Of a stretch of 64,000 nucleotides of DNA, positions 1,605 to 50,047 are shown in pieces. Position numbers and translations under genes: made by a program. The notes under the pieces are model-generated. The model had not been told where the DNA came from. It was given only the letters and a program-made list of their open reading frames with translations, and made no database searches. How positions within the stretch are numbered: position 1 is the stretch's first letter; every line of letters starts with the position of its first letter. The stretch comes from Alphaproteobacteria bacterium (GTDB lineage: Bacteria > Pseudomonadota > Alphaproteobacteria > Micavibrionales > UBA2020), in assembly GCA_016124645.1 (NCBI GenBank), contig WGNE01000034.1, positions 19,852 through 83,851 of the forward strand. The letters run 5' to 3'.

Positions 1605-3485
1605 TCAGGAAGCGACGAGACCCTTTTCGATCGCCATGTTCATACGGCGCACGAATTCGGAAGGATTGGCCAGCGGCTCTCCCTCCACGATGCGCGCCTG
1701 ATCGAGCAGCAAGAGCGCGGTTTCGCGCAGCAGCGTCGATTTCGGGTCGTTCGCCGCCAGCGTCTTCAGCCGCGCGATGACGGGGTGCTTGTCGTTGATC
1801 TCCAGCACATGCTGGTGCTTGCCCTCGTAGCCCTGCGATTTCTTCAGCATGCGCTGCATGTGGATATCGACGTCGTTTTCCGGCGCGACGAGGCAGACCG
1901 GGCTATCGACGAGGCGTTCGGAAACGGCGACGTCCTTCACCTCATCTTTCAAAATATCCTTCAGCGCGGCGATCAGCTTTTCGGTCGCGTCCTGCGCGGC
2001 CTGCTTTTCCTCGGGCGTTTTCTTTTCCTCTTCCGTCGTCTCGTCCTTGCCGGACTTCACCTTGGAAAGCTCGGCCGAGCCGCGGGTGATGGATTTCAGC
2101 TTCTTCTGCTTGTAGCTGTCCTGCATGGGCAGCCAGAATTCGTCGATGGTGTCGGTCATGAACAGGACCTCGACCCCCTTGGCGCGGAAGGCCTCGAGCT
2201 GCGGGCTGTTGCGCGCGGCTTCGACGGTGGGAGCGGAGAGGTAATAGATATGCTCCTGCCCGTCCTTCATGCGCTCCACGTATTCGTCGAGCGAGACCAG
2301 CCCCTCGCCCTGCGATGAATAGAAACGCGCGACGCGGCACAGCTGCTCGCGGTAGGCATGGGCGTCGTAAAGACCTTCCTTGATGACGGGGCCGAACAGC
2401 GCCCAGAAATTCTCGAATTCCTTCAGGTCGTTTTTCGCCTTGTCTTCCAGCTCCGACAAGATCTTGCGGGTGATGGCGCCGCTCATTTTCGCAATCACGG
2501 GATTGGCCTGCAGCATCTCGCGGCTGATGTTGAGCGGCAAATCCTCGCTGTCCACCACGCCCTTCATGAAGCGCAGGAAGGGCGGGATGAGCCCTTCCAC
2601 CCCGTCGGTGATGAAGACGCGGCGCACGTAAAGCTTCACCCCGTGCTGGCGGCGCGGGTCGTAAAGGTCGAAGGGCTTCATGGAGGGGATGAAGAGCAGG
2701 TTGTTGTACTCGATCGCCCCTTCCGCGCGCCAGTGCAGCGTCATCCACGGCTCGTCCATCTGCAGCCCGCCGGAAACGCTGCGGTAGAATTCCTTGTATT
2801 GCTCTTCCGTCACCTCGTTCTTCGGCCGCATCCACAGGGCGGAGGCCGCGTTGACCACCACGCCGCTCATCTCGATGGGGAAGGAGATATGGTCGGAATA
2901 TTTCTTGATGACGTGCTTCAACCGCTCCTCCAGCAGGAATTCGGAGGCGTCGTCCTTCACGTGCAGGGTGATTTGCGTGCCGGGCTCGTCTTTCAGCGCC
3001 TCGTCCACCGTGTAGCTGCCGCGCCCGTCGGAGGACCAGACATGCGCGACCTTCTCGCCCGCGCGGCGGCTGAGCACATCGACCTTGTCCGCGATCATGA
3101 AGGCGGAATAAAAGCCGACGCCGAACTGGCCGATGAGGTTGCTGTTCTTCTTGTCGTCGCCGTTGAGCTGCTTCACCAGCTCGCGCGTGCCGGAATGGGC
3201 GATGGTGCCGAGGTTCTGGATCAGCTCGTCCTTCGTCATGCCGATGCCGTTGTCGGACACGGTGACGGTGCGCGCGTCCGCGTCGAAGGCGACGGTGATC
3301 CTGAAATCGCTGTTGCCCTCGGCCAGCTCCGGTTTCGCGATGGCTTCGTAGCGCAGCCTGTCGCAGGCGTCGGAGGCGTTGGAGATCAGCTCGCGCAGGA
3401 AAATCTCGCGCTCGGTGTAGAGCGCGTTGGCGACGATGTCGAGCAGGCGGCTGACTTCCGCCTGGAATTCGCGTTGCTCGGTCAT
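1605..3485 (-). CDS. htpG: molecular chaperone HtpG (Hsp90 family)
   Basis: N-terminus MTEQREFQAEVSRLLDIVANALYTEREIFLRELISNASDACDRLRYE and the DNGIGM motif are Hsp90 GHKL signatures. Start placed at ATG 3485 (GGGAGA Shine-Dalgarno about 6 nt upstream), not the ORF-track start 3509. Confidence 0.95.
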   Translation of the reverse strand: MTEQREFQAEVSRLLDIVANALYTEREIFLRELISNASDACDRLRYEAIAKPELAEGNSDFRITVAFDADARTVTVSDNGIGMTKDELIQNLGTIAHSGTRELVKQLNGDDKKNSNLIGQFGVGFYSAFMIADKVDVLSRRAGEKVAHVWSSDGRGSYTVDEALKDEPGTQITLHVKDDASEFLLEERLKHVIKKYSDHISFPIEMSGVVVNAASALWMRPKNEVTEEQYKEFYRSVSGGLQMDEPWMTLHWRAEGAIEYNNLLFIPSMKPFDLYDPRRQHGVKLYVRRVFITDGVEGLIPPFLRFMKGVVDSEDLPLNISREMLQANPVIAKMSGAITRKILSELEDKAKNDLKEFENFWALFGPVIKEGLYDAHAYREQLCRVARFYSSQGEGLVSLDEYVERMKDGQEHIYYLSAPTVEAARNSPQLEAFRAKGVEVLFMTDTIDEFWLPMQDSYKQKKLKSITRGSAELSKVKSGKDETTEEEKKTPEEKQAAQDATEKLIAALKDILKDEVKDVAVSERLVDSPVCLVAPENDVDIHMQRMLKKSQGYEGKHQHVLEINDKHPVIARLKTLAANDPKSTLLRETALLLLDQARIVEGEPLANPSEFVRRMNMAIEKGLVAS

Positions 3486-3531
3486 GTTCTTTCTCCCTGT
3501 GGTGTCCAAGTTCGTGGCATCGGAATTGCCT

Positions 3532-3559
3532 GAAAATATTGCCCTAAAATATGGTCAAG
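3532..3559 (-). promoter_or_regulatory. candidate heat-shock (sigma-32-like) promoter of htpG
   Basis: The minus strand reads CTTG-N17-TATTTTC about 45 nt upstream of the htpG ATG, resembling the alphaproteobacterial RpoH consensus CTTG-N17-CYTATNT. Motif-level only. Confidence 0.25.
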
Positions 3560-4145
3560 GATTGAGCCGCGTCAAGTCCCAGCCCTCCGCCGTGCGGGTG
3601 AAGACGAAGCGGTCGTGCAGCCGCCCTTCCCCCTGCTGCCAGAATTCGATGGCCGAAGGCGTGACGGCATAGCCGCCCCAATGCGGCGGGCGCGGCACGT
3701 CCTGCCCCTTGTATTTTTCCGCGATCTCGCGCACCCGCGTCTCCAGCGCCGCGCGGCTTTCCAGCGGCTGCGACTGGCGGCTGGCCCATGCGCCCAGCTT
3801 GCTCAAGGGGTGGCGGGTGTGGAAATAGGCGTCCGCCTCCCACGCCGGCACGGGGGCGGCCCTGCCTTCCACCCGCACCTGCCGCCCGCAGGTCTTCCAG
3901 TGGATGCAGAGCGCGACGTTGCCGTTATGTGAAATTTCTTCGCCCTTGCGGCTTTTCATATTGGTATAGAAATAAAATCCCGACTCGTCCGCCTGTTTCA
4001 AAAGCACCATGCGCACGGAAGGACGCCCGTCCGCCCCCACGGTGGCAAGGGCCATGGCCTCGGGGTCGTTCGGCTCGGATTTGCGCGCTTCGTCCAGCCA
4101 TTCTTCAAATAATTCAACAGGATTTTTTTCGCGCAGGATTTCCAT
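3555..4145 (-). CDS. pdxH: pyridoxamine 5'-phosphate oxidase
   Basis: 196 aa. Contains RMVLLKQADESGFYFYTNMKSRKG and the C-terminal IEFWQQGEGRLHDRFVF motif typical of PdxH. Confidence 0.9.
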   Translation of the reverse strand: MEILREKNPVELFEEWLDEARKSEPNDPEAMALATVGADGRPSVRMVLLKQADESGFYFYTNMKSRKGEEISHNGNVALCIHWKTCGRQVRVEGRAAPVPAWEADAYFHTRHPLSKLGAWASRQSQPLESRAALETRVREIAEKYKGQDVPRPPHWGGYAVTPSAIEFWQQGEGRLHDRFVFTRTAEGWDLTRLNP

Positions 4146-4294
4146 TTTTCACCCGTGTAAATAACCGGAATGTTGAAAAACAAAGATAATCTTTGTCTTG
4201 CAGCAACCAAAACTTATGCTAGAACGTTATATATAGTGGAATTGTCTTACTGGCAATTCTACTGGCAGAAATTCCAAGAAAGGCGGAACACAAG

Positions 4295-4789
4295 ATGAAA
4301 GCACAAGTTATCGGATTGATCATGATTGCGTCGCTCGGCCTCGCCGGTTGCGCGCAAAATGGTCAGGAAAACGCATGGGGCATGGGCAACAAGCAGACGA
4401 TGGGCGCGCTTGGCGGCGCCGTCATCGGCGGCACCCTCGGCTCGCATGTCGGCAAAGGCAGCGGCAAGGCATGGATGACCGGCGTCGGCACCCTGCTGGG
4501 CGCGCTGGCAGGCAGCTCGATCGGCCAGTCGCTCGACCAGGCTGACCGCATGTACGCGAACCAGGCCATGAACCGGGCCTATGACGCGCCGCTCAACAGC
4601 ACGGTCAAATGGGACAACCCGCAATCGGGCCACAGCGGTTCCTACACCCCGATCCGCGAAGGCGTGAACTCGGCCACCGGCTACCGTTGCCGCGAATACA
4701 AGCAGTCGATCTTCGTCGATGGCCAGGCGCAGACCGCGACCGGCCAGGCTTGCCAGCAAAGCGACGGCTCCTGGAAAGTCATCAACTAA
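4295..4789 (+). CDS. glycine-zipper outer-membrane lipoprotein (17-kDa surface antigen / SlyB-Pcp-like)
   Basis: Signal peptide with lipobox LAG|C. Glycine zipper GALGGAVIGGTLGSHVGKGSG...GVGTLLGALAGSSIG. C-terminal Cys-containing domain. Confidence 0.75.
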   Translation: MKAQVIGLIMIASLGLAGCAQNGQENAWGMGNKQTMGALGGAVIGGTLGSHVGKGSGKAWMTGVGTLLGALAGSSIGQSLDQADRMYANQAMNRAYDAPLNSTVKWDNPQSGHSGSYTPIREGVNSATGYRCREYKQSIFVDGQAQTATGQACQQSDGSWKVIN

Positions 4790-4807
4790 AGACGGCTGAT
4801 ACCGTTA

Positions 4808-4842
4808 AAAAAGGCCATTCCTTCGGGAATGGCCTTTTTTCT
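4808..4842. terminator. bidirectional Rho-independent terminator
   Basis: Stem GGCCATTCC / GGAATGGCC with TTCG loop, A-run before and T-run after. Lies between convergent genes. Confidence 0.8.
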
Positions 4843-4861
4843 TGTCCGGTAAGTGAAAATT

Positions 4862-5413
4862 TTAAAAGTCGCAGGCCTTGCTGATGGCGTCATAGGCATC
4901 CGCGCTGCCGTGCAGGCTGTAGGTGTCGGTGATGACGTTGCCCCGGCCCGAGGTGCCGCGCACCGTCACGGCGCTGCCGCGGCGCAGGGCGTCGGTCAGG
5001 CGCTCGTCCCCGGCGCCGTCGGTCATCCATGCCATGTCGGCATCCGCGTTCTTGCGCACGTTCGCGCCGGTCTCCATCGTGAAATCCGTGCCATCGACGG
5101 TGATCGAGACCTTGCTGCCCTTGCGGTAGGGGAAACCGGCCGAAACAGTGACGGCGGTCTTCTCGCGGTCCTGCGGCCAGTGGGTGATGAAGAGGAAGGA
5201 CGCATCGCGGTTCTTCAGGTGCATGCTGCTGCGCGTGGATTTGGGTGCGCTGGCCATGTAGCAGACCTTGCGACCGCCGTCCATGAAATAGGCCGCGCTC
5301 CAGTCGCCGTACTGGCCGATGGGGGTGGCGTCGCCGCCGGCCGCCTGCGCCGCCGCGCTTGCCAGAAGGACCGCCAGACCGGTCGAAGTCGCCAGAAGAT
5401 GGAATGCTTTCAT
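4862..5413 (-). CDS. invasion-associated locus B (IalB)-like exported protein
   Basis: Start set at MKAFHLLATSTGLAVLLASAAAQAAG (signal peptide; GAAGGAGG Shine-Dalgarno upstream). WSAAYFMDGGRKVCYMAS and the C-terminal Cys pattern resemble the IalB family. Confidence 0.7.
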   Translation of the reverse strand: MKAFHLLATSTGLAVLLASAAAQAAGGDATPIGQYGDWSAAYFMDGGRKVCYMASAPKSTRSSMHLKNRDASFLFITHWPQDREKTAVTVSAGFPYRKGSKVSITVDGTDFTMETGANVRKNADADMAWMTDGAGDERLTDALRRGSAVTVRGTSGRGNVITDTYSLHGSADAYDAISKACDF

Positions 5414-36544: not shown

Positions 36545-36761
36545 GGGGGCGCCTGCCTTTTCTGTCTTTATATATAGGAATATGGTTGGTTGTTATGAAA
36601 CCTATAGAGGCCGCGCCCCGAAGTCAACACGCCGCCGCCCCCGCCGAAAATATGACTTAACTCACTGAAAATATATAGAGATTAGGCCTGACTTCGGTTT
36701 GCATTGCCCTATTTTGCAGTATTATGATAAATTAGAACAGTTTCAACAAGACGGACGTCCG

Positions 36762-37856
36762 ATGTTCGGCAAACCGCGCACCATATTCGAAAACGCCGCC
36801 CGCCCGCCGGGGCCCCTCGCGCCGCCGCCGGTGGACGCATGGAAAGCCGTCAGCAGCGACGACCTGAAGGCGCTGAAAAAGCTGCTGGGCGACAACCCCG
36901 CGCTGCTGCGCGAAATCAGGCGCGTGCCCATCGCGCACCGCCAGCTCGTCGAGATGAACCTCCTTCATTACGCCGCCCTCGTCGGCAGCAAGGAAGCGGT
37001 GGAGATGCTGGACGCATGCGGCGCCAATATCCACGCGCCGACGGCGCCGGACGGCTATACCCCCGCCATCCTCGCCGCGCGGGCGGGCAAGCTGGCCACG
37101 CTGGAATTCCTGAAGCTGAATGGCGCGAACCTCGACGCGCAGGCCCGCAGCCGCGCCACCGCGCTGAACGAGGCCTGCACGCGCGGCCACGCCGCCTGTG
37201 CGCATTTCCTGCTGGAAAACAAGGCGAAGATAAAAGATTCCGCCGGGCGCTTCCGCCTGCCCGACATCGTCGCCGCCGCCGAACAGGGACACAGGGAGAT
37301 CGTCGAGGATTTGCTGGCGCATGGCGCGAAAATCGACACGCGCGATTCAGCCGGGCGCAGCGCGCTGTGGTGGGCGCTCTACCGCGGGCATCACGACCTC
37401 GCGCAAGAGCTGATGGACCGCGGCGCGGATACCTCCCTTTCCGACGACGACGGCATGACCATGCTGATGGCCGCCATCATGGGCGGCGGCACGGACAGCG
37501 CGCGCCGCTTGCTGGACGAGGGCGTCCCGGTCAACGAAGGCGCGAAAAGCGGCGATACCGCCCTGCACTACACCGCCTATTCGAACCGGAAAGCCGCGGC
37601 GCGCGACATCGCCGTCCTGCTGCTGGAACGCGGCGCGTGGACGGACATCAAGAACAACCAAGGTGAAACGCCCGCCGACAGCTCGCGGCGGATGCGCGAC
37701 GGCGACTTGACCCGCACCATCGAAATCGCGGAGAAGGATGCGGGCCGCCCCTCCGCGCAGAACATGATACCCAAAAGATTCATGGACGGCACCTGCCGCA
37801 CCGTCAAGCCCATGAAGCCGCTGCAGCTAAAGCCGCGCGGCAAAACGAATTCCTGA
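36762..37856 (+). CDS. ankyrin-repeat protein
   Basis: Repeats include NLLHYAALVGSKEAVEMLDACGANIHA, YTPAILAARAGKLATLEFLKLNGANLDA and TALHYTAYSNRKAAARDIAVLLLERGAWTD. ATG 36762 preferred over the TTG at 36699. Confidence 0.8.
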   Translation: MFGKPRTIFENAARPPGPLAPPPVDAWKAVSSDDLKALKKLLGDNPALLREIRRVPIAHRQLVEMNLLHYAALVGSKEAVEMLDACGANIHAPTAPDGYTPAILAARAGKLATLEFLKLNGANLDAQARSRATALNEACTRGHAACAHFLLENKAKIKDSAGRFRLPDIVAAAEQGHREIVEDLLAHGAKIDTRDSAGRSALWWALYRGHHDLAQELMDRGADTSLSDDDGMTMLMAAIMGGGTDSARRLLDEGVPVNEGAKSGDTALHYTAYSNRKAAARDIAVLLLERGAWTDIKNNQGETPADSSRRMRDGDLTRTIEIAEKDAGRPSAQNMIPKRFMDGTCRTVKPMKPLQLKPRGKTNS

Positions 37857-43063: not shown

Positions 43064-43138
43064 GCCGTTGTAGCTCAGTGGTAGAGCATTCGCTTCGTAA
43101 GCGAGTGGTCGGAGGTTCGAATCCTCTCAACGGCACCA
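43064..43138 (+). tRNA. tRNA-Thr (anticodon CGU), CCA encoded
   Basis: Hand-folded cloverleaf: acceptor GCCGTTG/CAACGGC, D arm GCTC-AGTGGTA-GAGC, anticodon arm TTCGC-TTCGTAA-GCGAG (CGT), T arm GGAGG-TTCGAAT-CCTCT, then A-CCA. Confidence 0.9.
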
Positions 43139-43169: not shown

Positions 43170-43283
43170 GGCCGCACCCGTGACGGTCAGGATATTCCCC
43201 GCGAGGTCGTAGGTATAAGCGGTGGTCAGCGCATTGCCGCCGCGCGTGTCCGTCTCCTGCGTCACGCGCCCGAGGGCGTCGCA
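43170..43283 (-). pseudogene. orphan rhs YD-core fragment
   Basis: Encodes DALGRVTQETDTRGGNALTTAYTYDLAGNILTVTG, about 85% identical at DNA level (by eye) to rhs 45755-45858. It has no start codon and runs towards the tRNA. Confidence 0.75.
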
Positions 43284-43293
43284 GGGAGCGAAA

Positions 43294-43519
43294 TTTCAAT
43301 ATTTCAATTTACTCCGACCCCCTTGATTTAGCGTCGCGTTCAGGGAAGTGTCGGAGGGTGCGGAGTTTCAATATTTCAATTTACTCCGACCCCATTGATT
43401 AGGTGCCCCTTGTAGGCGGCCCCGCAGCCGGTGGAGGAATCGTAGGTCAGCGTCGCGTTCAGGGAAGTGTCGGAGGGTGTGGGGTTTCAATATTTCAATT
43501 TACTCCGACCCGGTTGATT
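43294..43519. repeat. three 35-bp direct repeats interleaved with rhs-core-derived inserts
   Basis: TTTCAATATTTCAATTTACTCCGACCC-NN-TTGATT at 43294-43328, 43366-43400 and 43485-43519. The inserts (37 nt and 84 nt) match rhs 45948-45976 and 45899-45976. Confidence 0.85.
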
Positions 43520-43553
43520 AACCCCATTGATTATTGATTGGAATAGAATCTAT

Positions 43554-44276
43554 TTATTTTGCATCTTTTGATTTACGTGCTGCACGGGCATTCCGAATCT
43601 CGTGCACAAACTCATCTATAATGGACTGCATTCTCTCTATATCGCTTTTAGAATATGAGGGATCTTCTATTTGCAGAGCCATCCCCAACGCTGATAAATC
43701 AAAATTCTTTAAAATTATTTGTTCAATAGCTTCGGTTCTAACGCCGCGATACATGGCCAATATATGCTCTATACCATGAACTGCACTCCGCCTAGCCAAA
43801 GCACAACCATGTTGCAACATATTCGCTATTGTTGAGGCGACCACAGATAAGACTTCCGTTTCACGGCTAAGACTGTTTTTTTTGAATGCACAATAAGTAA
43901 AAACAGAATCCCACCACATATAACCAGCTACATTAAGATTCGCGTTTTTGCAAAGAAGATCATCGAATAGCGATCCAATCGCCTCTATGCACTCTTTTTT
44001 CTGCTGAAACTGCACTGCATCACTCACCACAAATCGTAAAAATCCATTCGGCCCCGGTATGAACCAAAGCCCTTGGTCTATTTGGCCTATTGTATATTTT
44101 TCAGTCAGTCCCGCCGAGCTTTTAAACATGCGCGTCATATACGACACAGCCATCACCTCGGGACACGTATAGCCCCATGCTTCATCATTGTGCCAAGCGA
44201 AAAGAATATCAGTTACAGGATGGTCGAATACAAAGTCCAGCCACTCCTCATAAGAAATATTAGACAGGTCATGCAT
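43554..44276 (-). CDS. putative Rhs-toxin immunity protein (unknown family)
   Basis: 240-aa AT-rich ORF starting 11 nt downstream of the rhs stop, on the same strand. No signal peptide or TM helix. Called by position only. Confidence 0.6.
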   Translation of the reverse strand: MHDLSNISYEEWLDFVFDHPVTDILFAWHNDEAWGYTCPEVMAVSYMTRMFKSSAGLTEKYTIGQIDQGLWFIPGPNGFLRFVVSDAVQFQQKKECIEAIGSLFDDLLCKNANLNVAGYMWWDSVFTYCAFKKNSLSRETEVLSVVASTIANMLQHGCALARRSAVHGIEHILAMYRGVRTEAIEQIILKNFDLSALGMALQIEDPSYSKSDIERMQSIIDEFVHEIRNARAARKSKDAK

Positions 44277-44287
44277 ATGATGAACAC

Positions 44288-47200
44288 CTACATTGCCAAT
44301 GCCGCAATTATTAAAACCGTACCTAAAGACATGGAAGCAGCGGCCGCAGCGGTGTTCGGGTCTGGCACACTTGGTACCGAGGTCGGGCCACTATTCTTTG
44401 TCTTGGTATAGCCTCCCCACTTCCAACGCGGGATCATCGGTGACGAAAAACTACGCGTAGGGGGGGCTCCGTGACATACACCTGTATCGATCTGTTGCTC
44501 GTATATATCATAGCATTTTCCAAGCATCGTACACTGCTGGTGAATTTGTTGTGCATGCCCCCACCAGTCTTCAAAAGGCTGGCCACTCAATGAGTATGGA
44601 ACCATCTGCAAGGTTCTCACTGCTATAGATATTTTAAGCAGTGAAATCTTCTTTTCCAATTCCTCACAAGTGTCCTCTGTCGTACAGCTTTTAAGTTCAT
44701 GAGTAGTGTAATAGTTTAACCCCAAAAGATCGATTACATTGACTGGGTCCTGTCCAACGTAACCGAAGGTATTCATCCCGCCCGCAAGCCCAATAGGATC
44801 AGAGCTGATATAGCGTCCAATAGCCGGATTATAATACCTGTTCCAGTTGGCGAAAAGCCCGGATTCTGAGTCATAATACTGCCCCGGCATCCGAAGGTTG
44901 ACCGTCACGCTGCCGCTGGGCGTGCTGGTGCCGAAGGCATCGTTATTCCACGACCAGACCTGCGTACCGCCGGTATTGGTGGCGAATCTCGGTGTTCCCA
45001 AATGGTCCGTATGCAGATACGTGAGAACCTCGGGGCTGCCCGCGTCGATCTGGGCCAAGGGTGCGCCATTCAGATAGACGTACTCGCGGATGAAGTTGCC
45101 GGAGGTGTCGTATTCGCCGAAGAGCTGCCCATTGGGGCCATAGACGTAATAGGTCGTGCTGCTCGCCGTCACCTTCTTGGAGCGGCGGTGCAGCCAGTCG
45201 TAGGTATAGACGCCCGCCGTGGTGTTGACGGTGGCGAGGTTGCCCGCCGCGCTCCATGTGTAGGCGTTGGTGCCGTCGTTGGTGATGTTGCCGGCGGCGT
45301 CGTAGGTGTAGCTGTTCGCGCCGACCGCGCTGATCTTGTTGCTGGTGCTGGGCACGGTGGTCGTCGTGGTCGTGCCGTCGTCCTTGGTCAGGCGGTTGGA
45401 GGTGGCGTCGTAGGTGTAGCTGGTGGCGGTGCCGGGGTTTTCGGCATTGACGCGCAGCAGGGCGTCGTAGCCGTAGGTGGTGGCCCCCGCCTGCGTGACG
45501 TTGCCGTCGTCGTCCGTCGTATAGGTCCAGTTCGCGATGCCGCCGGAGACGGTGATGTTGGTCGGGTTGTAGTCCTGGTTGTACGTCGCGCTGTACGTCA
45601 GACTGTTGCCGTAGGTGAAGCCGCTCATCGGGCCGAAGGGCAGGTAGGCGGCGGAGCTCGCCAGCGTCGTGCCGGTGGAGTTCACCACGGCGGAGACGCC
45701 GCTCGCCTGCCCGTTCGCGTTGCGGGTATAGGTTACGACGCGGCCCGAGGGCAGCGTAATAGTCGCGATGTTCCCCGCGAGGTCATACGTGTACGCCGTC
45801 GTCAGCGCATTGCCGCCGCGCGTGTCGGTTTCCTGCGTCACGCGGCCGAGGTCGTCGTACTGGAACGCCGTCGTCCCCGCCGCGTCGGAGACGCTGCACA
45901 GGTGGCCCTTGTAGGGCGTGCCGCAGCCGGTGCTCGCGTCATAGGTCAGCGTCGCGTTCAGGGAAGTGTCGGAGGGATAGGCCACCGACGTCAACCGGTT
46001 GAGCGCGTCATAGGTGTAGTTGGTGACGACGCTGCGCGCATCCGTGCGCTGGGTCACGTTGCCCGCCTTGTCCACCGTGTAGGACAGCGTGCCCCGGTCC
46101 GGGCTCGTCTCCCCCGTCACGTCGCCGAAGGCGTTGTAGGTATAGGTGGTGGAGTTGCTGCGCTGGTCCTCGACCGAGGTCAGGTTATCCAGCGCGTCAT
46201 ACCCGTTGGTGGCGACGCCGGAGAGCGCGTCGGTCTGGGTCAGCAGCCTTTGCAGCCCGTCATAGGCGTAGGCGGTGGCGTTGTTGTTCGGGTCCGTGTA
46301 GCTGGTGAGCTGGCTGTTGCCGTCATAGGCGTAGTTTGCCGTCTGGCTCGACGCGCCGATGCTCTGGATGATGCGGGAGAGCGCGTCGAAGACTTTCTGG
46401 TGCGTGTATTTGAGGGCCGCGGAACTGTCCTTCACGTCCTCCTGCGTGATGTTGCCCGCATCGTCCAGCGTGTAGGTGATGGTGTTGCCCAGCGCGTCTT
46501 CCACGCCCGTCAGCCGCTGCGCGGAATCGTAGCTGTATTGCAGGTAGGCGCTGTTGGGCAGCGTGACCTTGGTGAGGTTGCCGTTGTCGTCGTAGTCGAA
46601 GGTGGTTTCCGCCTCGAGCGCCGTGCCGACCGCGCGGGTGGAGGTTTGCAGGCGGCCGTTGGTGTCATAGGTGTAATCCGTCTCCGTCCCGTTGGGGTCC
46701 GTGACCTCCGTCGGGCGGCCCGCCGAATCGCGCGAGACGATGGTGGTCACCTGCCCCAGCGCGTTGGTGATGGTTTTAAGGTCGAGGTTCGAATCATAGG
46801 TGTAATCCGTCGTGTCCGTCACATCCGTGCGCGGCCCGTCCACCTGCTCCAGCCGGCCGAGGATGGTATTGCCGCTGCCGTCGGTGGAGTTGGCGTAATA
46901 GGTATAGGTCGTGATGCGGGTGTCGGAGGTATTGGTGTCCGTCACCGTCTTCGACGTCACGCGGCCGTAGGTGTCGTAGTCGTAATCCGTCGTCCGGCCC
47001 GTTTCCGTGATCAGGTCGGGGAGGTTGTAGGTCGGGTCGTAGGTGATGGTCGTGATTTGCTGGTCGTCGGTATCCGCGTCGCGGGTGATTTGCGTGATGT
47101 TGCCGCGGTCGTCGTATTGGTAGCGGGTGGTGTTGTTCTCCCAGTCCGTTTTGCCGATGACGCGGCCCTTGTCGTCGTAGTTGTAATAGCGGCTCGCCGC

Positions 47201-49363
47201 CGAGGTATGGGCGGTGGCCGCGCGGTTTTCCTGCGTGATCCTGCGCACGTCCAGAATATTGGTGTAGTAAAAATCGCTGTCCTGGCTCAAGGCGTTGGTG
47301 GTGGTGGAGGTCTGGCCCGCGTTGTAGTTCACATCGGTATTGCTGGCGCCCCCCGCCAGCTGCGACTGGACGGCCTTGCCGTTCGTGTCATAGGTATAGG
47401 TGGCGTAGCGCGTGCCGCTTTCATCGGTGATGCCCGTCAGCGCGTTGACGTAAGTTGCGTTCTCGTAGTGGTAGCCGATGGTCTTGGTATCCGGCTTGGT
47501 CACGGTCTCGAGGTTGCCGTTCCCGTCATAGGCATAGCTGAAGGCGCCGTCTGGCGTGACCATCGTCGCGATGCGCCCGCTGGAATAGGTGAAACTGAGC
47601 GACCGCCCGTTCTCGTTGGTGACGGAGGTCAGCTGGCCCGAGCCGTTATAGGCAAGGTTCAGCGCCCCGCCGCCCAGATACTCGATGCGCGTGAGCTGGT
47701 AGGAGCTGTTGTATTTCTCGACCGTGTCGTTCGGCAGGGTGTAGATATATCCCCCGCTGCCGTCGTCCGCCAGCGTCGCCGTGGTGTCGGCATCGTCCGC
47801 CACCCAGTCCGATCCGCTCTTCGTATAGCCCGTGACCGCGCCCGTGCCGTCGGTGATCGAGGCCGTCGTGCCGCCGGTGACGGTCAGCGTGCGCGCGTAA
47901 TTCGTGCGCCAGAGCTGCCCGATCGTGTTGTCCGTCCACGTGCTGTCCGAGCGGTAGATGCGCGAGAAGGTCAATCCGCCCGCGTTGTAATCCGTCGCCG
48001 ATTCTGTCAGGTAGCCGACATCGAAGTTGATGGGGTCGCCGGCAAGGCTGCTTCGCCCCTCGTTGCATGTCACGCAATACCTGCCTGCCTTTGTTGCGTC
48101 AGATGCGGCAACCGTCGTCGGCGTCGTTGTCTGGCTCACCGTGTAAGGACCGGTGTTGTAGTTATAATAGCCCTTAAGGGTGATGGTATATTGACCGGTT
48201 TGAGGTAAAGTCGAGGATAAAGAATTGTAAGCCCACCCCCAGTAAGTACCGTCAGGCTTGATGAAAGTCATAGCCCTCGTAAACGAACCCGTGGTCGTGA
48301 TGGAAACATGATTGCCCGATGTGCCCGTAAAGAAATAGCTGTCAATACCGTTCTTTGGCAGGTTCCCGGAGCGGGTATCTCCGCTGATAAGACTACCGCC
48401 CGAAACGTTTTCTCCGCCAAACTGAGTATAAAGAATGTAAGGGCCGGTGTCATAACGATAATAGCCATACAAAACGACTGTATAGGTACCGCTAACAGGC
48501 AGCGTTACGGCTAAACGGGTGTTTCCCACGGTCCAGTAGCTGCCATCAGGCTTATACAGGTTGATGTGCGCAGTGTAAGAAGCGTTGTCAAAAAGCTGGA
48601 CGTACTGCCCTGCAGTACCTTCCAACTGAAAGCTTTCAATGCCGTTCGTAGGCAGTATGCCGTTATAGGGTTGAGCGCTTACCAACTTACCGTTTGAAAC
48701 CCCACCGCCGCCGAGCTGGTAATACATTGTGAAAGGGCCATACATCGGGTTTGTGCCGGAAGTATATGACGTCATGGCCACAGTGTAGGTTCCGCTGGAA
48801 GGAAGCTGAACACTCAGCAGATCATGGGAAGATCCCCAGTAGCTGCCATCTGATTTATATATATAGATATTGGTTGTATAGTTGGGAGAATGGGTCGTAA
48901 TGAGAACATTCTGCCCGGAATTTCCAGTTAAATGGAAACTCGCAACGCTGTTCCTGTTAGCCAGTGAGCCGTTATAAGGTTGTCCGCTCGTCAGGTCACC
49001 GTTTGCAACGTCTCCTTCCCCGAGTAAATAATCGAAGCTAAAATCGCCAGTGCCTGAAGAGAACTCAGGGGATACGGCTAAATCATAAGTTCCGGTATCG
49101 GGAAGCGTGACGACAAGACGATTGTTCGCAGAGGTCCAGCTACTGCCGTCAGGCTTTTTTATAACCATATGTATGCCATAGGTAGAGTAAGCGCCGAGGA
49201 TAATCCCCTGTCCGGCTGTCCCTGTAAAGCTGTAGTGCAGAGTCGCGCCGACAGCAAGAAACCCGTTTGTCGTCGTGCCGCTGGTGATTGTCGTCGCATG
49301 CGCCGGAGCAGCATGGAAAAAGAGGAACGCGGAAACTAAAATACCAAATAAAAACTTCTTCAT
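44288..49363 (-). CDS. Rhs/YD-repeat polymorphic toxin with Sec signal peptide and N-terminal beta-sandwich repeats
   Basis: Signal peptide MKKFLFGILVSAFLFFHAAPAHA. Four units of about 100 aa (..GTYTV..DGSYW..). Rhs plug GDPINFDVGYLTESATDY. Dozens of YD repeats. Core end NRYYNPAIGRYISSDPIGLAGG...DPVNVIDLLGL. A 142-aa C-terminal module follows. Confidence 0.92.
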   Translation of the reverse strand: MKKFLFGILVSAFLFFHAAPAHATTITSGTTTNGFLAVGATLHYSFTGTAGQGIILGAYSTYGIHMVIKKPDGSSWTSANNRLVVTLPDTGTYDLAVSPEFSSGTGDFSFDYLLGEGDVANGDLTSGQPYNGSLANRNSVASFHLTGNSGQNVLITTHSPNYTTNIYIYKSDGSYWGSSHDLLSVQLPSSGTYTVAMTSYTSGTNPMYGPFTMYYQLGGGGVSNGKLVSAQPYNGILPTNGIESFQLEGTAGQYVQLFDNASYTAHINLYKPDGSYWTVGNTRLAVTLPVSGTYTVVLYGYYRYDTGPYILYTQFGGENVSGGSLISGDTRSGNLPKNGIDSYFFTGTSGNHVSITTTGSFTRAMTFIKPDGTYWGWAYNSLSSTLPQTGQYTITLKGYYNYNTGPYTVSQTTTPTTVAASDATKAGRYCVTCNEGRSSLAGDPINFDVGYLTESATDYNAGGLTFSRIYRSDSTWTDNTIGQLWRTNYARTLTVTGGTTASITDGTGAVTGYTKSGSDWVADDADTTATLADDGSGGYIYTLPNDTVEKYNSSYQLTRIEYLGGGALNLAYNGSGQLTSVTNENGRSLSFTYSSGRIATMVTPDGAFSYAYDGNGNLETVTKPDTKTIGYHYENATYVNALTGITDESGTRYATYTYDTNGKAVQSQLAGGASNTDVNYNAGQTSTTTNALSQDSDFYYTNILDVRRITQENRAATAHTSAASRYYNYDDKGRVIGKTDWENNTTRYQYDDRGNITQITRDADTDDQQITTITYDPTYNLPDLITETGRTTDYDYDTYGRVTSKTVTDTNTSDTRITTYTYYANSTDGSGNTILGRLEQVDGPRTDVTDTTDYTYDSNLDLKTITNALGQVTTIVSRDSAGRPTEVTDPNGTETDYTYDTNGRLQTSTRAVGTALEAETTFDYDDNGNLTKVTLPNSAYLQYSYDSAQRLTGVEDALGNTITYTLDDAGNITQEDVKDSSAALKYTHQKVFDALSRIIQSIGASSQTANYAYDGNSQLTSYTDPNNNATAYAYDGLQRLLTQTDALSGVATNGYDALDNLTSVEDQRSNSTTYTYNAFGDVTGETSPDRGTLSYTVDKAGNVTQRTDARSVVTNYTYDALNRLTSVAYPSDTSLNATLTYDASTGCGTPYKGHLCSVSDAAGTTAFQYDDLGRVTQETDTRGGNALTTAYTYDLAGNIATITLPSGRVVTYTRNANGQASGVSAVVNSTGTTLASSAAYLPFGPMSGFTYGNSLTYSATYNQDYNPTNITVSGGIANWTYTTDDDGNVTQAGATTYGYDALLRVNAENPGTATSYTYDATSNRLTKDDGTTTTTTVPSTSNKISAVGANSYTYDAAGNITNDGTNAYTWSAAGNLATVNTTAGVYTYDWLHRRSKKVTASSTTYYVYGPNGQLFGEYDTSGNFIREYVYLNGAPLAQIDAGSPEVLTYLHTDHLGTPRFATNTGGTQVWSWNNDAFGTSTPSGSVTVNLRMPGQYYDSESGLFANWNRYYNPAIGRYISSDPIGLAGGMNTFGYVGQDPVNVIDLLGLNYYTTHELKSCTTEDTCEELEKKISLLKISIAVRTLQMVPYSLSGQPFEDWWGHAQQIHQQCTMLGKCYDIYEQQIDTGVCHGAPPTRSFSSPMIPRWKWGGYTKTKNSGPTSVPSVPDPNTAAAAASMSLGTVLIIAALAM

Positions 49364-49411: not shown

Positions 49412-50047
49412 TTAATTTTTCCGGCGGAAGTCGATTTCCACGGCCTTGTATTCCTGCCCCGCGCTGCCGGTGAGATAAATCGTCACCTTGTATGTATCGC
49501 TGCTGGTGAATGCGATCTCCGAACGGTATGGCCGTTCCTTGTCTAGCAAGGGGAACATCAGCTTTCCCTTTTGCTCGAGTGCATTATTCTTTTTATCGTA
49601 TTGTCCGGTTCCGGTTGTCATGCTGGTATGGTTGTCATCCAGCCATACGGAGGTGAAGGCTTTTTTAATCCTGTCGTAGCCGAGATAACCTATAGCGTTA
49701 TAGGGGATGTTCTGGCCGCCGATATTCAGGGGAACACTCGTCTCGAGCGACAGGAAGCGGTTGTTGAAAATCATCTTGTTGGTCGTATAGCCCGTGGACA
49801 TTTGGGCGGGCGCGCCTTTTTTGCTCCAAAAATTGAGGTCGTAATCCCAGTCCCCGACGAGGGCGGCCAGAATCTGGTTCTGCTCAGAAGCTTCCCCCTG
49901 CTTTTCCAGTTTCTGCATGGCCTCCTTGCCCAGCAATTCGGCGCGTGGCGCGGGCGTTGCCTTGGCCTTCTGCGCCGCAAACGCGGGCGCGCCGGTTCCG
50001 GCCATCAAAAAAACTGCAATGAATAATGCGATGAAAGACCTGCTCAT
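49412..50047 (-). CDS. DUF1579-like exported protein
   Basis: Signal peptide (FIALFIAVFLMAGTGAPAFA). LVGDWDY...GYLGYDRIKKAFTSVWLDDNHTSMTTGTGQYDKK...YKAVEIDFRRKN fits the DUF1579 pattern as I recall it. Confidence 0.55.
   Translation of the reverse strand: MSRSFIALFIAVFLMAGTGAPAFAAQKAKATPAPRAELLGKEAMQKLEKQGEASEQNQILAALVGDWDYDLNFWSKKGAPAQMSTGYTTNKMIFNNRFLSLETSVPLNIGGQNIPYNAIGYLGYDRIKKAFTSVWLDDNHTSMTTGTGQYDKKNNALEQKGKLMFPLLDKERPYRSEIAFTSSDTYKVTIYLTGSAGQEYKAVEIDFRRKN

Follow-up and report, generated by a model that had tools for sequence, protein, structure and literature searches.

Organization of the locus

We analysed a stretch of 64,000 nucleotides (nt) from an alphaproteobacterium of the order Micavibrionales (UBA2020; assembly GCA_016124645.1, contig WGNE01000034.1, positions 19,852 to 83,851), further called the window. 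The subject is the C-terminal tip of the protein encoded by an rhs gene in this window, together with the gene that follows. The coordinates of the features are listed in Table 1. The rhs gene is complete and encodes 1691 amino acids (aa). In a Pfam and NCBIfam scan its product matches RHS_repeat in 14 stretches (E = 5.2e-70), forming a YD/RHS shell, and it also matches DUF6531, the RHS domain and YD_repeat_2x (E = 3.1e-58). The Rhs_assc_core model TIGR03696 covers residues 1475-1549 (E = 1.4e-20). The core terminus reads ...DPIGLAGGMNTFGYVGQDPVNVIDLLGL, and a tip of 142 aa (positions 44291-44716) starts right after its end, ...RYISSDPIGLAGGMNTFGYVGQDPVNVIDLLGL. The junction has the form DPIGLAGG...DLLGL followed by NYY, that is, a conserved core end before a variable tip. 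The preliminary description of this region, made from the letters alone, had placed the 142-aa tail at exactly this position, and its borders are retained here.

Table 1. Features of the rhs locus (window coordinates)
Feature	Position	Strand	Basis
Rhs polymorphic-toxin gene, complete, 1691 aa and stop	44288..49363	-	open reading frame (ORF) list, translation, Rhs domain matches
Putative Sec-type signal peptide (MKKFLFGILVSAFLFFHAAPAHA)	49295..49363	-	read from translation
Four N-terminal repeats of about 100 aa, PPC-type (pre-peptidase C-terminal)	48104..49294	-	DNA repeats of about 300 nt (D9), Pfam PPC
DUF6531 and YD-repeat shell	44891..48046	-	GC 0.637, third-position GC (GC3) 0.90
Conserved Rhs core end PGQYYDSESGL...DPIGLAGG...DLLGL, already low-GC	44717..44890	-	Rhs_assc_core, per-block GC3
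Toxin head, tip residues 1-103	44408..44716	-	family alignments A1, A2, A6; AlphaFold2
Variable linker, tip residues 104-122 (TKTKNSGPTSVPSVPDPNT)	44351..44407	-	predicted local distance difference test score (pLDDT) about 50
C-terminal hydrophobic helix, tip residues 123-142 (AAAAASMSLGTVLIIAALAM), up to the stop	44291..44350	-	hydropathy
Candidate cognate immunity-type gene, 240 aa, soluble product	43554..44276	-	sequence, family hidden Markov model (HMM), synteny
Island end, remnants of a second rhs core	43179..43533	-	84-86% identical to 45755-45976
tRNA-Thr(CGT)	43064..43138	+	Rfam tRNA 74.5 bits, ARAGORN

The N-terminal end of the protein carries the signal peptide, probably cleaved after AHA by our own reading of the translation rather than by a predictor. 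The repeats that follow weakly match Pfam PPC (E = 1.2e-5). No PAAR or VgrG element was seen.

The tip family

An exhaustive HMMER search (phmmer) of 1.84 billion proteins (cluster representatives) with the tip as the query produced 15 matches at E <= 1e-3, the best one at 4.5e-13. One of these (P0008, 1268 aa) is a low-complexity artefact, whose 8 repeated stretches of similarity are confined to the linker region, and was dropped. The remaining 14 proteins are true homologues, and in all of them the tip region is placed after an Rhs core end of the form ...DPxGxxGGxNxYxxxxxxPxxxxDxxGL. Three further members were found in the fetched loci L004, L009 and L014. The family is distributed over Alphaproteobacteria, the cultured Desulfonema ishimotonii, and soil and rhizosphere metagenomes. 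A word-indexed search of 5.8 billion proteins gave no match with the tip itself and a single match (P0014) with the family profile. No relative of the tip was observed among 185,579 species-representative genomes searched with two toxin peptide patterns, nor in the PLSDB plasmids, and a search of IMG/VR found relatives of neither the tip nor the product of the following gene. Judged by its sequence, the tip is a member of a very rare, undescribed family of putative toxins. The earlier label, an unclassified Rhs C-terminal toxin module, remains appropriate, as no confident match was found in Pfam, NCBIfam, PADLOC, PDB sequences or by Foldseek.

Conservation was counted over 15 N-terminally complete sequences, in which the mean column identity is about 31%. 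Nineteen positions are invariant: H6, C11, D15, C17, L20, K23, S30, R34, G45, Q46, G53, H54, Q57, I58, Q60, Q61, C68, P96 and W98. Positions T5, M38, P78, P85 and P100 are nearly invariant. The family consensus is AGxxTHGLxxCxPGDDCxxLxxK...S..ER..EMxPFSxxGQxWxxYxGHxIQIxQQxxMLxxC...PPCC...PLPxWKPxPY. The tip of the window has five cysteines (positions 11, 17, 62, 68 and 81), not seven as previously counted.

In the metagenomic relative at L009 (1-1596) the Rhs core end before the tip is joined, nearly without a spacer, to fibronectin-type-III-like repeats, and YD repeats are absent from the 530 residues that are visible. Another delivery scaffold is thus suggested for the cassette in this case.

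The downstream partner gene

The gene downstream of the tip starts 11 nt past the toxin stop codon, and an AGGTG Shine-Dalgarno-like sequence overlaps that codon. Its product is identical to the NCBI entry 'MAG: hypothetical protein GC185_08800 [Alphaproteobacteria bacterium]' (MAG, metagenome-assembled genome). Seven homologues of this protein were found. It belongs to no Pfam or NCBIfam family and has no relative in PDB. None of the eight members of the partner family has a transmembrane segment (maximum hydropathy over 19 residues 0.83-1.34) or a signal peptide.

HMMs of the toxin and partner families were run over every fetched locus, and downstream sequence is present in seven distinct loci. 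In all seven, a match to the partner family lies immediately downstream of the match to the toxin family, with spacing mostly between a 4-nt overlap and 15 nt. Firstly, this is the window itself, where 43554-44276 follows 44288-49363. In L001-L004 a 5'-truncated toxin remnant precedes the partner within an island of small genes, and in L009-L011 the gap is 11 nt, as in the window. The partner of L014 was recognized by hhalign (probability 80%, E = 1.5e-5), and those of L017 and L019 are downstream matches of the partner-family HMM. Finally, L018 comes from the genome of the cultured D. ishimotonii (NZ_BEXT01000001), and its pair is located at 3001-4599 and 4615-5229 of the locus. The gene pairing is obligate in these loci. 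Such a downstream position in seven loci out of seven is the signature of a toxin-immunity pair and bears out the initial proposal that the 43554-44276 product is a specific partner of the tip. The tip and the 240-aa protein very probably represent a genuine toxin-immunity family pair, toxicity and protection being suggested by the context.

One might instead regard the tip as a decaying remnant or a chance ORF at the end of rhs, as rhs debris lies downstream (43179-43533). However, the reading frame is not shortened compared to other members of the family, all 19 invariant residues have persisted in Alphaproteobacteria, Desulfonema and soil metagenomes alike, and the partner gene is intact and tightly coupled. 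A non-functional tip is thus hardly credible.

Some partner-family genes have other neighbours. In L004 (2107-4498) the toxin remnant and the partner are part of a run of small genes on the same strand, including one for an ankyrin-repeat protein. This run resembles a polyimmunity island, and an integrase and a resolvase are encoded nearby in L001 and L002. Orphan partner genes (30% identity) with no toxin upstream were observed in two uncultured gut Victivallis MAGs (L015 476-1000, L016 6001-6561), in the latter case following yidC and jag. In L005 (3044-8429; also in L006 and L007) the gene for P0020, 31% identical to the partner, lies immediately upstream of a Y-family-polymerase-like gene and dnaE2, a slot usually occupied by imuA. 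The distant clade P0020-P0023 was considered as a marker of a cellular pathway and rejected: P0021 and P0022 (L020, L021) occur without the polymerase and dnaE2 context, so the neighbourhood of P0020 is probably coincidental.

Base composition and the cassette junction

The tip is AT-richer than the YD core, as noted previously (GC 0.474 versus 0.637, with the window mean of 0.61). However, the compositional break, which had been assigned to the DPxGL boundary itself, lies about 58 codons upstream of it, near 44890. GC3 calculated per 20-codon block drops from 0.85-1.0 to 0.45-0.65 between codons 1491 and 1492. This point is 58 codons (174 nt) upstream of the LGL|N boundary and coincides with the beginning of the PGQYYDSESGL block; codons 1490-1549 already have GC3 of 0.54. 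The drop places the cassette junction inside the conserved core end, and recombination likely occurred at its upstream edge.

The low-GC tract extends into the partner gene, where GC3 is 0.39. Since this tract includes the partner gene as well as the tip and the core end, the tip cassette would have arrived jointly with the gene that follows. The composition and the conservation described above indicate a real, horizontally acquired tip, whose role as a toxin is suggested by its context. The first 420 codons of rhs are also low in GC3 (0.54). The N-terminal quarter of the gene (48104-49363) is as low in GC as the tip, and thus the gene looks foreign at both ends compared with its high-GC YD core.

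Predicted structure and possible relatives of the head

The tip consists of a head, a linker and a terminal helix. AlphaFold2 modelling of the module alone, with the family alignment, resulted in a confident helical hairpin with ordered N- and C-terminal segments on either side (mean pLDDT 76, about 90 in the core, 79-96 over residues 11-100). The single-sequence prediction was unusable (pLDDT 43). The head is composed of an N-terminal TH...C(x5)C segment, the hairpin of helices H17-37, H39-44 and H48-78, and a conserved P..W segment.

On helical wheels, K23, S30, R34 and E37 of the first helix lie 80-160 degrees to one side of the hydrophobic seam. Residues H54, Q57 and Q61 of the third helix, with Q60 adjacent, are at 80-160 degrees on the same side. 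By helical periodicity, rather than by measured distances, the polar residues of both helices should form one continuous face. As the hairpin is antiparallel, with the turn at 38-47 and i + j about 85, our geometric reading of the same periodicity would set C17 opposite C68 and L20 opposite L65. The paired positions are flanked by C11 and the cysteines of PPCC, and with these and H6 the open end of the hairpin looks clamped. The candidate clamp would involve H6, C11, C17, C68 and the PPCC cysteines, acting as a metal site or as disulfides.

Foldseek searches with this model retrieved only generic helical hairpins, such as those of Mediator subunits, ferritins and tape-measure proteins (best E = 2.7 against PDB and 0.8 against BFVD). 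Searches of PDB sequences with phmmer and with the profile returned nothing meaningful (best profile E = 0.12). Neither these searches nor scans of all members against Pfam, NCBIfam and PADLOC gave a profile or fold match to HNH, EndoU/BECR, deaminase, ADP-ribosyltransferase, peptidase or HEPN families, in agreement with the preliminary description, in which no nuclease, deaminase, ADP-ribosyltransferase or peptidase motif was recognised. By inspection only, the motifs of HEPN (Rx4-6H), HNH-type GH, zinc-binding anti-sigma factor domains (ZAS, Hx3Cx2C), DksA-like proteins and phospholipase A2 (HD dyad) are absent as well.

The sole recurring weak Pfam match is Ntox16 (PF15523), the top one for 8 of 15 members (best E = 0.0063) and for the family consensus. 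The tip of the window scores 13.1 bits (E = 0.12) and the family consensus 17.5 bits (E = 0.0049), both below the gathering cut-off of 25 bits; the weak alignment relates tip residues 7-70 to model positions 25-84 of 85. Ntox16 is an alpha-helical predicted toxin with a conserved R and [DNE]xxH, known from Rhs, type VI secretion system (T6SS) and Photorhabdus virulence cassette (PVC) contexts, with no immunity family or function listed (PMC3482391). Like Ntox16, the tip family is all-alpha in the AlphaFold2 model, is associated with Rhs and has an invariant arginine (R34). However, [DNE]xxH is not evident in the tip, where position -3 is aromatic before H54 and variable before H6, and the C-terminal helix is not part of the Ntox16 description. 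The tip family may be a distant branch of Ntox16.

One possibility is that the tip is a soluble cytoplasmic enzyme, for instance a small metal-dependent nuclease or another modifying enzyme, and that its tail serves only for crossing the inner membrane or for packing within the Rhs shell. Indeed, invariant His, Ser, Lys, Arg, Glu and Gln are grouped on one face, the partner is soluble and cytoplasmic, and the sub-threshold Ntox16 match recurs. On the other hand, no catalytic family or fold was matched, and a helical hairpin of 100 aa is an unusual enzyme scaffold. Moreover, in contact-dependent inhibition (CDI) systems and colicins the known entry domains sit N-terminal to the toxin, not C-terminal. 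We consider such an enzyme unlikely.

The hydrophobic tail

The linker between the head and the terminal helix is variable and often proline-rich, with 13-71 aa and up to 47% Pro across the relatives. In the window the tail ends with ...VPSVPDPNTAAAAASMSLGTVLIIAALAM; the Kyte-Doolittle hydropathy of its final 15 residues averages 2.07, and VPDP followed by a hydrophobic tail is present as described initially. Of the 18 members, 13 have a hydrophobic 15-mer, of mean hydropathy 1.87 or above, at the C-terminus or a few residues from it. The tail is conserved in its physico-chemical character, not in sequence. It is retained even in orphan or truncated copies without a signal peptide, such as P0003 and the remnant in L004. 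As it is kept across the family, a connection with the membrane is reasonable.

This tail had been likened to a PEP-CTERM sorting signal. In that case the producer would use it for sorting or anchoring (PEP-CTERM/exosortase-like or stop-transfer), to hold the Rhs protein on its own envelope. Both full-length members, that of the window and P0010, have Sec signal peptides, and VPDP precedes the hydrophobic helix in the window. However, the family as a whole does not retain VPDP or PEP, and the conserved PLPxWKPEPY block is 13-71 residues away from the helix and never adjacent to it. The residues past the helix (0-7) carry no net charge in most members, the tip of the window among them; the lack of a terminal Arg cluster, already noted for the window, extends to the family, since no member has a cluster of Arg or Lys there. 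The NCBIfam sorting-signal models do not match the last 34 or 47 residues at E <= 10. The PEP-CTERM reading is therefore rejected, given also the tails of the signal-less copies, and anchoring in the producer in any form is very improbable.

Another possibility is a pore or ion-channel toxin, whose small-residue terminal helices would oligomerise in the inner membrane of the target and dissipate its potential, with the head driving oligomerisation or gating. The conserved terminal helix would fit this, as would its GxxxG or small-xxx-small runs, which resemble glycine zippers (GAVIGIVIGIVF in L014, VLVGGSVVGGSIIGIG in P0009), and the small-residue runs IGIGLGTVGTG in P0005 and AAAAASMSLG in the window. 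No catalytic motif is recognised in the tip, and there is a precedent, as the Rhs-borne Tse5-CT enters membranes and depolarises cells (PMC9637101). However, the tip has a single hydrophobic helix, compared to several in Tse5-CT and two in Tox-WTIP, and all 19 invariant residues are in the polar head, whereas the sequence of the tail is not conserved. The partner is soluble, unlike the transmembrane Tsi5, Imm-CdiI and Imm17. In the survey by Zhang et al. 2012 (PMC3482391), immunity proteins against toxins acting at the membrane level are themselves transmembrane (Imm-CdiI, Imm17), and globular immunity proteins of the cytoplasm are taken as a sign that the toxin is bound directly in that compartment. 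Since the polar helical head is the most conserved part of the tip and the partner has neither a transmembrane segment nor a signal peptide, a purely membrane-damaging toxin is weakened, and a pore is an improbable outcome. Of the membrane-acting tail proposed in the preliminary description, the hydrophobic terminus stands as a feature of the family. As a whole, that description is confirmed in part in its observations and supported in part in its interpretation.

Comparison with known toxins

Tse5-CT of Pseudomonas aeruginosa resembles the tip in that it is small, is borne by an Rhs protein, lacks enzymatic motifs and has hydrophobic helices, which in Tse5-CT can enter membranes; it demonstrates that cargo inserting into membranes can travel in an Rhs shell (PMC9637101, PMC10684867). 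Several of its helices are transmembrane or amphipathic, and Tsi5, which confers immunity, has two transmembrane regions (PMC9637101, PMC10684867). In contrast, our tip ends in a single helix, its polar head is conserved and its partner is soluble, and its delivery would be through Sec rather than T6SS. No sequence similarity between the tip and Tse5-CT was detected. Tox-WTIP, listed as a pore-forming polymorphic-toxin domain, has two membrane-spanning helices and the motifs RxxR and W-TIP (PMC3482391). The tip is likewise Rhs-associated, small and apparently membrane-directed, but it contains neither RxxR nor WxTIP, and has one helix and a large conserved soluble head. When released, it would share the topology of tail-anchored membrane proteins: a soluble head, a spacer, and a helix followed by 0-7 residues. 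The combination of the head, spacer and terminal helix with a soluble partner is unlike any membrane-acting Rhs or CDI toxin compared.

The locus itself is an ordinary Rhs polymorphic toxin locus. As in other Rhs/YD systems (PMC3482391), there are a YD shell, the DPxGL...LGL core end, an unrelated low-GC tip, a tightly coupled small downstream gene, core debris further downstream and an island beside a tRNA gene. It differs from typical systems in its delivery end, with a Sec signal and four PPC-type repeats instead of PAAR or VgrG, and from the annotated ones in that Pfam, NCBIfam and PADLOC have no family for its tip or its partner. Both families are undescribed and extremely rare.

A possible mechanism

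The strong constraint on the head, the physico-chemically conserved tail and the soluble partner make us prefer a tethered toxin. Firstly, within an Rhs polymorphic toxin exported through Sec, residues 1550-1691 would be the toxin cassette, released by autoproteolysis at DLLGL|N and then delivered. Secondly, the terminal helix would insert into the cytoplasmic membrane of the target cell and tether the head, whose conserved polar face could bind or modify an essential target at the membrane. Finally, in kin cells the soluble cytoplasmic 240-aa partner would bind the head and block the toxin. We rate this scheme in full, that is, the cassette, the tethered head and the neutralising partner, at about an even chance; membrane tethering as such is proposed tentatively, at somewhat less than that. 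Toxicity, the cleavage, insertion into the membrane, the site of action and the clamp by metal or disulfides are all suggested by the features described above.

Several observations weigh against the tethered toxin. The tails of 5 of the 18 members are merely weakly hydrophobic or internal, and the charges beside the helix give no clear orientation signal. A role of the hydrophobic tail in translocation or in forming a pore is equally conceivable. Helical periodicity, and not distances in the model, is the basis of the Cys/His clamp and the polar face, and no structural or sequence analogue of the tip points to a biochemical activity.

The tip might even represent a new mechanistic class of toxins delivered by contact or secretion, in which a small Cys/His-clamped hairpin, tail-anchored in the inner membrane of the victim, kills without a pore or a known enzymatic activity by capturing or modifying a membrane-proximal or cytoplasmic target, and a soluble immunity protein caps the hairpin. 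We consider this doubtful.

Rhs tips are a reservoir of antibacterial activities, and the families that were solved tended to expose new cellular vulnerabilities. Uncharacterised tips are common in general. The present pair is unannotated and crosses phyla, and an orthologous pair is available in the cultured D. ishimotonii. If tethering is true, it would be a new route for delivered toxins to membrane-proximal targets. If it is false, there is still a defined new pair of toxin and immunity families for database annotation.

The island edge and neighbouring genes

Downstream of the partner gene, three exact copies of an AT-rich element of 37 nt alternate with the rhs-core fragments at 43179-43533. 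On the minus strand the element reads TAATCAATGGGGTCGGAGTAAATTGAAATATTGAAAC, and its terminal part, ATTGAAAC, is CRISPR-like. There are just three copies in the window, with 0 expected by chance. Two of the intervening pieces open with the same rhs-derived 35 nt. A CRISPR array is not confirmed, as there is no match to Rfam CRISPR-DR families, the fold is weak and the 'spacers' share their rhs-derived start. The repeats may have arisen as scars of recombination, as a small mobile element or through an error of assembly.

The tRNA-Thr(CGT) gene is about 40 nt away from the last rhs fragment, so that the low-GC rhs island abuts it. Genes for tRNAs are typical insertion sites of islands, and the locus as a whole resembles an rhs island next to such a gene. 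Immediately upstream of rhs, a gene at 49412-50047 (minus strand) encodes a DUF1579 protein with a signal peptide (E = 2e-28), has a lowered GC content, and may be a member of the same island. About 6 kb away from the island, at 36699-37856 on the plus strand, there is a gene for a 385-aa ankyrin-repeat protein (Ank_2, E = 1.5e-37).

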